Positions 8,353-11,102 of a stretch of 11,947 bases of DNA are shown one piece after another (the first letter of the stretch is position 1; each line of letters opens with the position of its first letter). This DNA is from a virus (taxonomy: Duplodnaviria; Heunggongvirae; Uroviricota; Caudoviricetes): the IMG/VR virus record IMGVR_UViG_2896601577_000004; one strand, 5' to 3'. A program made the translations under genes and the position numbers. The notes beneath the pieces were generated by a model, which searched no databases, was not told the origin of the DNA, and saw nothing but the letters and a program-made list of their open reading frames with translations.

Positions 8353-8499
8353 AAAAATATCAAAGAGTGTAGCATTAGAACGGGGCTATCGGAAACAGAT
8401 GTGTGACTGCTCCCCGCCCTTTCGGGCTGAAGTGGCACACTGAATTTGGCCACCTGAACAGAGGTGATATGCTCACCTCAGAACAACACAGGTGCTCCA

Positions 8500-8802
8500 A
8501 TGAAAAAAAGAAATTTTAGCGCAGAGTTTAAACGCGAATCCGCTCAACTGGTTGTTGACCAGAAATACACGGTGGCAGATGCCGCCAAAGCTATGGATGT
8601 TGGCCTTTCCACAATGACAAGATGGGTCAAACAACTGCGTGATGAGCGTCAGGGCAAAACACCAAAAGCCTCTCCGATAACACCAGAACAAATCGAAATA
8701 CGTAAGCTGAGGAAAAAGCTACAACGCATTGAAATGGAGAATGAAATATTAAAAAAGGCTACCGCGCTCTTGATGTCAGACTCCCTGAACTGTTCTCGAT
8801 AA
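8500..8802 (+). CDS. IS911 OrfA (copy 2)
   Basis: Identical protein to copy 1. Confidence 0.9.
8751..8757 (+). promoter_or_regulatory. Programmed -1 frameshift heptamer A AAA AAG of IS911 (copy 2)
   Basis: Heptamer lies in the OrfA frame at codons L-K-K-A; OrfB is in the -1 frame. Confidence 0.7.
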
Positions 8803-8828
8803 TCGGGAAACTCAGAGCGCATTATCCT

Positions 8829-9397
8829 GTGGTCACACTCTGCCAAGTGTTCGGGGTTCATCGCAGCAGCTACAGATACAGGAAAAACCGTCCTGAAAAA
8901 CCAGACGGCAGACGGGCTGTATTACGCAGTCAGGTACTTGAGCTACATGGCATCAGCCATGGTTCGGCCGGAGCAAGAAGCATCGCCACAATGGCAACCC
9001 GGAGAGGCTACCAGATGGGACGCTGGCTTGCTGGCAGGCTCATGAAAGAGCTGGGGCTGGTCAGCTGTCAGCAGCCGACTCACCGGTATAAACGTGGTGG
9101 TCATGAACATGTTGCTATCCCTAACTACCTTGAAAGGCAGTTCGCCGTGACCGAGCCAAATCAGGTGTGGTGCGGTGATGTGACCTGTATCTGGACGGGT
9201 AAGCGCTGGGCGTACCTCGCCGTTGTTCTCGACCTGTTCGCAAGAAAACCAGTGGGCTGGGCCATGTCGTTCTCGCCGGACAGCAGGCTCACCATGAAAG
9301 CGCTGGAAATGGCATGGGAAACCGGTGGTAAGCCCGGCGGGGTGATGTTCCACAGCGATCAGGGCAGTCATTATACGAGCAGGCAGTTCCGGCAGTT
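8829..9397 (+). pseudogene. IS911 orfB, 3'-truncated by IS629 insertion (the ORF-track end at 9437 is readthrough into the IS629 terminus)
   Basis: Protein identical to copy 1 OrfB for 189 residues, then diverges exactly at the IS629 inverted repeat (TGAACCGCCCCGGG at 9398). Confidence 0.85.
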
Positions 9398-9439
9398 TGA
9401 ACCGCCCCGGGTTTCCTGGAGAGTGTTTTATCTGTGAAC

Positions 9440-10330
9440 TCAGGCTGCCAGATCATCGTTTCCGATGGAAGCATAATAAGCTTTTTCTGCTTCTGCCGGA
9501 GGAGTATGGCCCAGCCTTTCCAGCAATCGTCGATTATTATACCAGTCCACCCACGTGAGTGTGGCCAGTTCCACTTCTGCACGGTTTTTCCAGCTCTTAC
9601 GGTGTATTACCTCCGCTTTGTAAAGACCATTGATGCTCTCCGCCATCGCGTTGTCATACGAGTCGCCTGTACTTCCTGTTGATGCCAGTAATCCGGCTTC
9701 CTTAAGCCGCTGTGTGTAGGCCAGCGATACATACTGAGAACCTTTATCACTGTGATGGACTGTGCCGGACGGTCGACGGGCCCATAACGCCTGCTCCAGA
9801 GCATCCAGCACGAATGTCGTTTCCATGGACGATGAGACCCGCCACCCCACGATGTATCCGGCAAACACATCAATGATGAACGCCACATAGACGAAGCCCT
9901 GCCATGTGCTGACGTAAGTAAAATCAGCCACCCACAGCTGGTCAGGTCGTTCTGCCACGAACTGACGGTTTACGCGGTCGCCTGCGGCAACGGCTTTCCG
10001 GCTGATGGTCGTACGGACCTTTTTACCCCGGAGAACACCGGCAAGTCCCATAACCGCCATGAGACGTGCCACAGTGCATCTGGCCACTCTGATACCTTCC
10101 CGTAACAACTGACGCCAGACTTTACGCACACCGTATACCTGATGATTCCCATCGTATACGCGCAGTATCTCTTTCTTCAGCCAGTCATCGCGCTGCGCAC
10201 GGGCACTGCGTTTATCAGGATGATGTCGCTGTTGCTGACAGTGGTAATACGTTGACGGGGCAATATGCAGTTCACTGCATACCGGTCCGACCCCGTACAG
10301 CTTACGCAGCTTATCCAGCAGTGGCATCAC
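9440..10330 (-). CDS. IS629 transposase OrfB (DDE domain, 296 aa)
   Basis: IS3-family OrfB with a 4-nt overlap with OrfA; recalled as IS629 OrfB. Confidence 0.9.
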
Positions 10331-10653
10331 TTTTTCCAGAGGCGGTCGAACTCCGCCTTCGCAAAATAAGCGGAAGCCTGGCGAAGGATATCGTTACTGC
10401 GGCGCAGTTCACGATTTTCACGCTCCAGCTCTTTCAGACGCTGACGTTCAGCGGTGGTGAGCCCTCCATCACCGCCCCCGGTATCCCGCTCATGCTGGCG
10501 AACCCAGACACGCAGAGTCTCCGGCGTACAGCCAATCTTTGGAGCAATGGAACAAATTGTCGCCCATTGTGAGTCATATTCGCCCTGACTTTCCAGAACC
10601 ATACGGACTGCCCGTTGACGGACTTCGGGGGAAAAACGAGTATTTTTAGTCAT
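10327..10653 (-). CDS. IS629 OrfA (108 aa, helix-turn-helix)
   Basis: [50 protein letters not shown]... recalled as IS629 OrfA. Confidence 0.9.
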
Positions 10654-10707
10654 CCTGTTTACCTCTTTCTCAGGGAGTTTAGTCTCCAGGATTCCCGGGG
10701 CGGTTCA

Positions 10708-11102
10708 ATGGGAAATTGTTGTCGCCATTGTTCGATTAACGCGTATTTTTCAGCGACTCCTGTGCAAAATACGCTGTTGCTTTTTTTAATATATCTCGCT
10801 CAAGGCGAGCTTCATTTAACGCCTTACGCAGTTGCAGAATTTCAGATTCCAGTTCAGCCACCGTGCGGGAACCAGGAGTACCGAGCCCTTTTCTGGCGGC
10901 GGTAACCCATTGTCCTAAAGTGCCTTCAGGAAGGGATAATCGGGAAGCGCCTTCACTGATCGAAAGTTGATTTTCAAGAACCGTTCTGACAGCTTCGGCT
11001 TTGAACTCTTTAGAGTAACGTTGGTTTTTTCTGCTCATTATTAGCTCCTTCTGATGCCATTCTATTTCAGGAAGGAGTGTCCGTTAAACTCAGGCTACCT
11101 CA
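10708..11102 (-). mobile_element. IS600, second copy, truncated: only the left ~395 bp (orfA end) remain, abutting IS629
   Basis: Sequence identical to 5518..5912 of copy 1; terminus ...CTCAGGCTACCTCA at 11102; the IS629/IS600 junction falls within the 4-bp microhomology TTCA (10704..10707). Confidence 0.9.
10736..11038 (-). CDS. IS600 OrfA (copy 2)
   Basis: Identical protein to copy 1 OrfA. Confidence 0.9.
   Translation of the reverse strand: MSRKNQRYSKEFKAEAVRTVLENQLSISEGASRLSLPEGTLGQWVTAARKGLGTPGSRTVAELESEILQLRKALNEARLERDILKKATAYFAQESLKNTR

Follow-up and report, generated by a model that had tools for sequence, protein, structure and literature searches.

A duplication-less IS911/IS629/IS600 junction as a possible scar of stepwise, insertion sequence-driven erosion of a Rac-like prophage at ttcA in Shigella

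In Escherichia coli K-12, Rac is a defective lambdoid prophage at ttcA with intR adjacent, and it is cryptic after internal deletions. The stretch of DNA treated here, the 11,947 nucleotides (nt) of virus record IMGVR_UViG_2896601577_000004 (below called the window; all coordinates are positions in it and strand signs refer to its strand), carries a prophage of the same type. Three insertion sequences (IS) of the IS3 family stand back to back in it: a truncated IS911, a complete IS629 and a truncated IS600. Compared with K-12 Rac the prophage is a different mosaic, with queH, hokD/sok and a tRNA cluster, its early region has been removed by IS elements, and its intR is split by IS600. We give about an even chance to the reading that the cluster is a fixed scar of stepwise, IS-driven erosion of this Rac-like prophage in the lineage of S. 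boydii and non-type-1 S. dysenteriae, with a deletion from one end of a single IS629 copy as the favoured last step.

Shigella genomes are a textbook case of scars from IS-mediated deletions, of IS elements that are nested or truncated and of prophages in decay (PMC7373316). Events of this kind have been described before and lie within the known behaviour of the IS3 family, and no new element, gene or mechanism is involved. Deletions adjacent to IS629 range from a few nt to >40 kb (PMC9943667), and in O157 only 21 of 47 IS629 sites have matching duplications (PMC3271280). The adjacent deletions of enterohaemorrhagic E. coli (EHEC) O157, in so far as the work of Kusumoto et al. 2011 and Ooka et al. 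2009 is relayed in PMC9943667 and bioRxiv 10.1101/2023.06.07.543989, resemble the window in that IS629 is kept complete and without a target duplication, the deletion, which lies in a prophage, starts exactly at one inverted repeat, and the endpoint homology is short (4 nt). They differ, in those same accounts, in being strain polymorphisms, whereas here an ancient event is fixed in a clade of Shigella, and both the deleted and the retained flanks are themselves IS3-family elements (IS911 and IS600). Genome reduction in Shigella by recombination between IS copies is alike in the IS-dense chromosome, the loss of non-essential prophage DNA and the single IS with non-matching flanks (PMC7373316), but at this locus no parent with a second copy turned up in the collections searched, and the deletion spans only a short, local interval. 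In experiments on IS3, deletions were anchored at the inverted repeats, the IS was sometimes left intact and the endpoint homology was ≤6 bp (PMC8860574), all as in the window; that system was plasmid-based, with induced transposase and with or without IEE, while the window holds a natural chromosomal scar.

The cluster lies between queH and intR (Table 1). Its IS911 part equals the first 970 nt of the full copy at 2351-3598 with 0 mismatches, and the homology stops abruptly at nt 971. The open reading frame (ORF) 8829-9437 matches positions 105-295 of the 369 in the IS3 transposase profile, which places the break inside orfB. This part is 98.7-98.9% identical to a RefSeq locus annotated 'IS3-like element IS911 family transposase', and beside full elements (~1250 bp, both inverted repeats), to which it is 98.7-100% identical, it is a remnant without the right inverted repeat (IRR). 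IS629 has both repeats (TGAACCGCCCCGGG...) and over its full length (1-1310) is 98.7% identical to the feature labelled 'IS3 family IS629' in LC567824.1. Its orfA, 108 amino acids (aa), and orfB, 296 aa, are intact and match the NCBIfam transpos_IS3 profile, and its ALIL frameshift pseudoknot scores 120 bits. IS600 is reduced to nt 1-395 (or 399) of 1264 bp, 99.5-100% identical to RefSeq-annotated copies, and splits intR at nt 390/391. Chance does not account for matches of 970, 1310 and 395 nt at 98-100% identity, and the boundaries and features of the three elements in the original prediction, which had been drawn from the window alone, all agree with the identities to full copies, the ORFs and the inverted repeats. 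The triplets that flank IS629 differ, GTT (9395-9397) against ATG (10708-10710), and no direct duplication of 3-4 bp is present; a second look brought out no matching 3-bp repeats, as had been claimed. IS600 nt 396-399 read TGAA, and the left inverted repeat (IRL) of IS629 begins with these 4 nt as well, which leaves the joint ambiguous over TTCA at 10704-10707 and bears out the 4-bp microhomology first noticed there. An exact-protein look-up gave no match for a 202-aa junction ORF, and for a 140-aa chimeric ORF, in which the broken IS911 orfB reads into IS629, a match in the window genome only.

The genes that come after intR, past the end of the window, are ttcA and dbpA, the Rac attachment site. 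The intR fragment starts at nt 391 of the 1236-nt gene and is 99.6% identical in E. coli CFSAN029787, where the order is recE-gam-AAA ATPase-DUF1187-xisR-intR-ttcA. On the other side of the cluster, positions 3599-8427 (minus an inserted IS600) are 98.7-99.8% identical to lambdoid prophages. In these relatives the order is lysis-tRNAs-DUF1133-DUF1364-DUF1367-rem-hokD-queH-hypothetical gene-DUF977-ydaV, continuing past ydaV to ...-cro/cI-...-rha-ydaE-recE-gam-AAA-DUF1187-xis-int. The order and orientation of queH and intR are those of the intact prophage, the IS cluster stands in place of the early region, and ~10.8 kb of prophage DNA is absent compared with intact relatives. With intR beside ttcA-dbpA and a gene order collinear with intact relatives, the integrase is the intR of this Rac-like prophage and stands at its native site; the original prediction had called it distant. 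Since queH and intR are collinear in one prophage, the scar is an internal prophage deletion, and since that deletion is local (2.5 kb to ~12 kb), no reciprocal product is expected elsewhere in the genome, where it had been proposed to look for one. Inversion or translocation was considered and is ruled out by the flanks, which are collinear with intact prophages.

To tell the original IS629 joint from the rearranged one, the lost halves of simple insertions were built as expected sequences and then searched for. IS629 IRL followed by GTT and IS911 nt 971-1030 was found at 123/123 positions in one alignment piece in four plasmids of enterotoxigenic E. coli (ETEC; CP024244.1, CP035820.1, CP035818.1 and CP127268.1). 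In these plasmids IS911 runs on from nt 971 to its IRR, and the IRR side of IS629 abuts an IS66 fragment. The position in IS911 and the relative orientation are the same as in the window, and independent insertions in the plasmids and the window are unlikely, judged from this identity. The complementary half therefore indicates that the IS911/IS629 joint is the original transposition joint, at IS911 nt 968-970 with an implied GTT duplication. The rearranged joint is then that of IS629 IRL with IS600, the one that carries the 4-nt overlap. The claim that IS629 is not a simple insertion thus stands for the IS600 side, and does not stand for the IS911 side, which is a normal half of a GTT insertion with its other half in the ETEC plasmids. 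More generally, a surviving complementary half elsewhere lets the original joint of a duplication-less IS be recognised. The alternative lost half, IS600 from nt 396 onward joined through CAT to IS629 IRR (GACACATCGCTTCAATGTGAACCGCCCCGGG), was absent from the complete E. coli genomes, PLSDB, the GTDB representatives and the JGI metagenomes, in which Shigella chromosomes are barely represented. Exact scans were empty for the ETEC-type half joint in the GTDB representatives and for the IS911/IS629 joint in the JGI metagenomes. In two of the plasmids, CP024244.1 and CP035820.1 (locus positions 2751-4340), the arrangement is a partial IS66, IS629, GTT and IS911 nt 971-1250, and the joint of IS629 IRR with IS66 has no microhomology. 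A C at nt 33 of IS629, present in the junction copies and the ETEC plasmid copy, was tried as a mark of common descent and discarded as too common (exact match in 2171 of 5735 records). One nested insertion would be common to a Shigella chromosome and ETEC plasmids.

The comparison with a related strain that had been called for is offered by S. dysenteriae CFSAN029786 (CP045784.1). It has in common with the window the IS911/queH joint (8427/8428), the IS600 insertion at 4651 and the joint of the other IS911 copy (IS911-A, at 2351-3598) with a tRNA gene, and its IS911 upstream of queH, at the same site, is complete. This IS911 is followed by a 297-bp piece of the AAA-ATPase gene, by IS1 and by intR starting at window position 11627, so that queH, the AAA-ATPase fragment and the intR fragment are kept in the order of the intact prophage. 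The IS911 flanks do not match (GGC and TTC), the IS1 between the AAA-ATPase and intR fragments has no duplication, and in IS600 a 922-bp deletion begins exactly at the IRL, without microhomology. Because the queH/IS911 joint is common to both genomes and IS911 is complete in CFSAN029786, erosion of the prophage was stepwise; the joint is older than the IS629 rearrangement, and lineages then underwent erosion independently. Had the window lineage gone through a state with queH, IS911 and the AAA-ATPase fragment, its last deletion would have taken away no more than 2,466 bp. The locus is a clean and datable example of IS3-family elements dismantling a prophage stepwise in the course of Shigella genome reduction. 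In the remnant of CFSAN029786 (locus positions 7270-12759) three further joints are without duplication, those of IS911 with the AAA-ATPase fragment, of IS1, and of the deletion at the IS600 IRL.

Three back-to-back IS3-family elements are a classic trap for short-read assemblers, and collapsed or mis-joined IS repeats could in principle produce such a cluster. Both joints are, base for base, identical in nine public assemblies from different projects and platforms: the window genome (GCA_002949895.1, CP026867.1), CP026762.1, CP001063.1, CP049281.1, CP026814.1, CP026795.1 and three AMK* draft assemblies. CP049281.1 is S. boydii isolate 600657, clade 2, sequenced with PacBio and Illumina (PMC7545283), and its mean PacBio read of 8.6 kb is longer than the 2.7-kb IS cluster. 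The companion plasmid of CP026762.1 is labelled S. boydii. The nine identical joints therefore exclude an assembly artefact, to which we give next to no probability, and the long-read control that had been proposed for the join is supplied by the PacBio-based assembly together with the other eight. A search of 5,426 complete E. coli genomes and of the PLSDB plasmids found neither joint and gave only two-piece pseudo-hits. Being identical in all nine S. boydii-type assemblies examined, the joints are a lineage marker.

The original prediction had named an adjacent deletion and recombination between two IS629 copies as possible origins of a chimeric junction without duplication, and both are credible mechanisms. 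In the former, which we favour, the deletion would have begun at the IRL end of a single IS629 copy. The transposase would have cut this end, and the end would have been joined to a nearby site on the same molecule, inside IS600, either by 'sloppy' strand transfer or by template switching or end joining aided by the 4-nt TGAA match. IS629 would stay complete and joined to IS911 as before, and the loss would comprise IS911 nt 971-1250, what was left of the early prophage genes, the 5' third of intR and IS600 nt 396-1264. The deleted length would be ~2.5 kb from a start like CFSAN029786 and ~12 kb, including 10.8 kb of prophage DNA, from an otherwise intact prophage. What is seen in the window agrees with this: the IS is intact, one original joint is kept, the new joint lies at the exact IS terminus, and the DNA is collinear and of the same replicon. 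In CFSAN029786 this prophage has further deletions that begin precisely at the end of an IS, without sign of a second copy. The single-copy route is favoured because it is the more parsimonious, because a parent with a second copy was not found and because the only microhomology is at the secondary joint. In RecA-dependent recombination, the other route, two IS629 copies in direct repeat, one in IS911 (GTT) and one in the IS600 that interrupts intR (CAT, nt 393-395), would have exchanged, with the interval deleted and a hybrid IS629 left. This is the standard account of IS-flanked deletions in Shigella (PMC7373316), and we consider it a serious possibility that falls short of an even chance. 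Gene-conversion tracts and mosaic haplotypes occur in the IS629 at this locus, and at another locus (L010) a copy of IS629 sits inside IS600, flanked by a clean GTG duplication. On the other hand, a second insertion of IS629 in the same orientation within 2.5-12 kb is needed, the predicted parental joint was in none of the four collections, though these cover Shigella chromosomes poorly, and the 4-nt overlap would be a coincidence expected at only ~0.7% of random endpoints in the reconstructed deleted interval.

Several points weigh against the deletion from a single copy. Microhomology was found at one of four comparable secondary joints examined and was absent at the other three, so TTCA may be there by chance, as recombination between two copies would have it. 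Copy-out-paste-in transposition alone does not predict deletions in the donor (bioRxiv 10.1101/2023.06.07.543989). No intermediate genome was found that separates a one-copy from a two-copy origin; look-ups of the 93-aa intR ORF led to ttcA loci of a different make-up (Mu-like and IS630 insertions), none of them intermediate. The two-copy route is fully feasible, as IS629 copies exchange sequence by homologous recombination and IS629 inserts into IS600 elsewhere. In the sister genomes the junction IS629 has the mosaic make-up expected of a crossover product; gene conversion also yields mosaics. In CFSAN029786, finally, IS911 is complete at this site, and if the ETEC half shares descent with the window, the arrival of IS629 is unexplained. 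This last point is taken up by an import in several steps, in which the joint of IS911 (nt 970) and IS629 was copied in from a nested IS911::IS629 elsewhere, on a plasmid or the chromosome, by recombination or gene conversion between IS911 copies, while the IS600 joint was a separate event. It would suit the complete IS911 of CFSAN029786 at the same chromosomal site and the finding of the complementary nested half on ETEC plasmids and not in Shigella, and the two IS911 copies of the window genome (IS911-A and IS911-B) are 100% identical over 970 nt, which suggests homogenisation. It requires extra steps, leaves the IS629/IS600 joint unexplained and presupposes an intact nested IS911::IS629, which was found in no collection searched; we regard it as improbable.

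If the deletion from the single IS629 end did take place, the TTCA overlap might be the natural footprint of a break initiated by transposase at the IS629 end, resolved with microhomology by PrimPol/IEE-like repair or a copy-out template switch, and fixed in the Shigella clade. The PrimPol IEE joins ends through 4-6 nt of microhomology (PMC9943667), and one model put forward has 'sloppy strand transfer' or a copy-out template switch (bioRxiv 10.1101/2023.06.07.543989). We think this more specific proposal doubtful. If true, it would be evidence from a natural genome outside EHEC for a pathway proposed from in vitro IEE biochemistry. The scar itself is without function: it leaves an apparently intact IS629 and orphan IS911 and IS600 orfA genes, and the remaining prophage is without immunity, replication or excision functions.

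Table 1. Features of the IS911/IS629/IS600 cluster and its flanks.
Feature	Position	Strand	Basis
queH (epoxyqueuosine reductase), prophage cargo gene	7666..8331	-	RefSeq annotation of 99.8%-identical FDAARGOS_944 locus; Pfam QueH on called gene
Native prophage DNA beyond queH	up to 8427		
IS911 nt 1-970: IRL, intact orfA (8500-8802), orfB cut inside DDE domain	8428..9397	+	
GTT, one target-duplication copy from IS629 insertion into IS911	9395..9397	+	
Complete IS629, 1310 bp; IRR at 9398, IRL at 10707	9398..10707	-	
IS629 orfB	9440-10330	-	
IS629 orfA	10327-10653	-	
IS629 ALIL frameshift pseudoknot	10256-10372		
TTCA overlap: IS629 IRL terminus or IS600 nt 396-399	10704..10707		
IS600 nt 1-395: IRL at 11102, intact orfA 10736-11038; orfB and IRR absent	10708..11102	-	
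intR (Rac-type integrase) 3' two-thirds, nt 391-1236	11103..11947	+	

Within the junction IS629 of the window, 15 substitutions are clustered in a tract at 10268-10615 (minus strand) compared with the eight sister genomes, while the sequence on both sides is identical; position 9761 was also noted. The tract allele of the window is the common IS629 type, and the ancestral junction copy carried a rare divergent tract. The 15 substitutions are absent even from the closest relative, which has the same mutated IS600 end. The tract is best explained as strain-specific gene conversion by another IS629 copy. In the window genome alone, a 1-bp deletion in a C run at 11501 breaks the intR remnant into two ORFs, of 116 and 93 aa, where the sisters have one of 254 aa. 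It may be a homopolymer sequencing error or a real mutation.

In the remaining part of the prophage there are four clustered tRNA genes (3596-3895), of which the first is truncated, and a hokD/sok toxin-antitoxin locus that adjoins queH (7433-7608), with a sok RNA scoring 116 bits against Rfam. A complete IS600 at 4651-5914, with a clean TCC duplication, lies directly ahead of the DUF1133/Q-like gene, upstream of its start codon. A mutation in the second base of the IS600 IRL (TTAGG as compared to TGAGG) alters the conserved terminal TG/CA, which may disable this end; the mutation is shared by AMKC01000120 only.

The full IS911 at 2351-3598 is inverted with respect to the truncated copy. It has the flanks AAA and GGA, without target duplication, and it removes 14 nt from the 3' end of a prophage tRNA-Gly gene. 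On its IRR side the window genome has a GH1 gene, IS2 and the mar region, the sisters have IS66 and an ABC transporter, and CFSAN029786 is different again. Since this flank varies between genomes, the element is a recurrent rearrangement point. The window begins inside IS2, which is 100% identical to an IS2 of FDAARGOS_943. A 5'-truncated gene for a GH1 6-phospho-beta-glucosidase (934-2319) abuts the IS911 IRR and is another IS-bounded gene fragment (window 1-2350).

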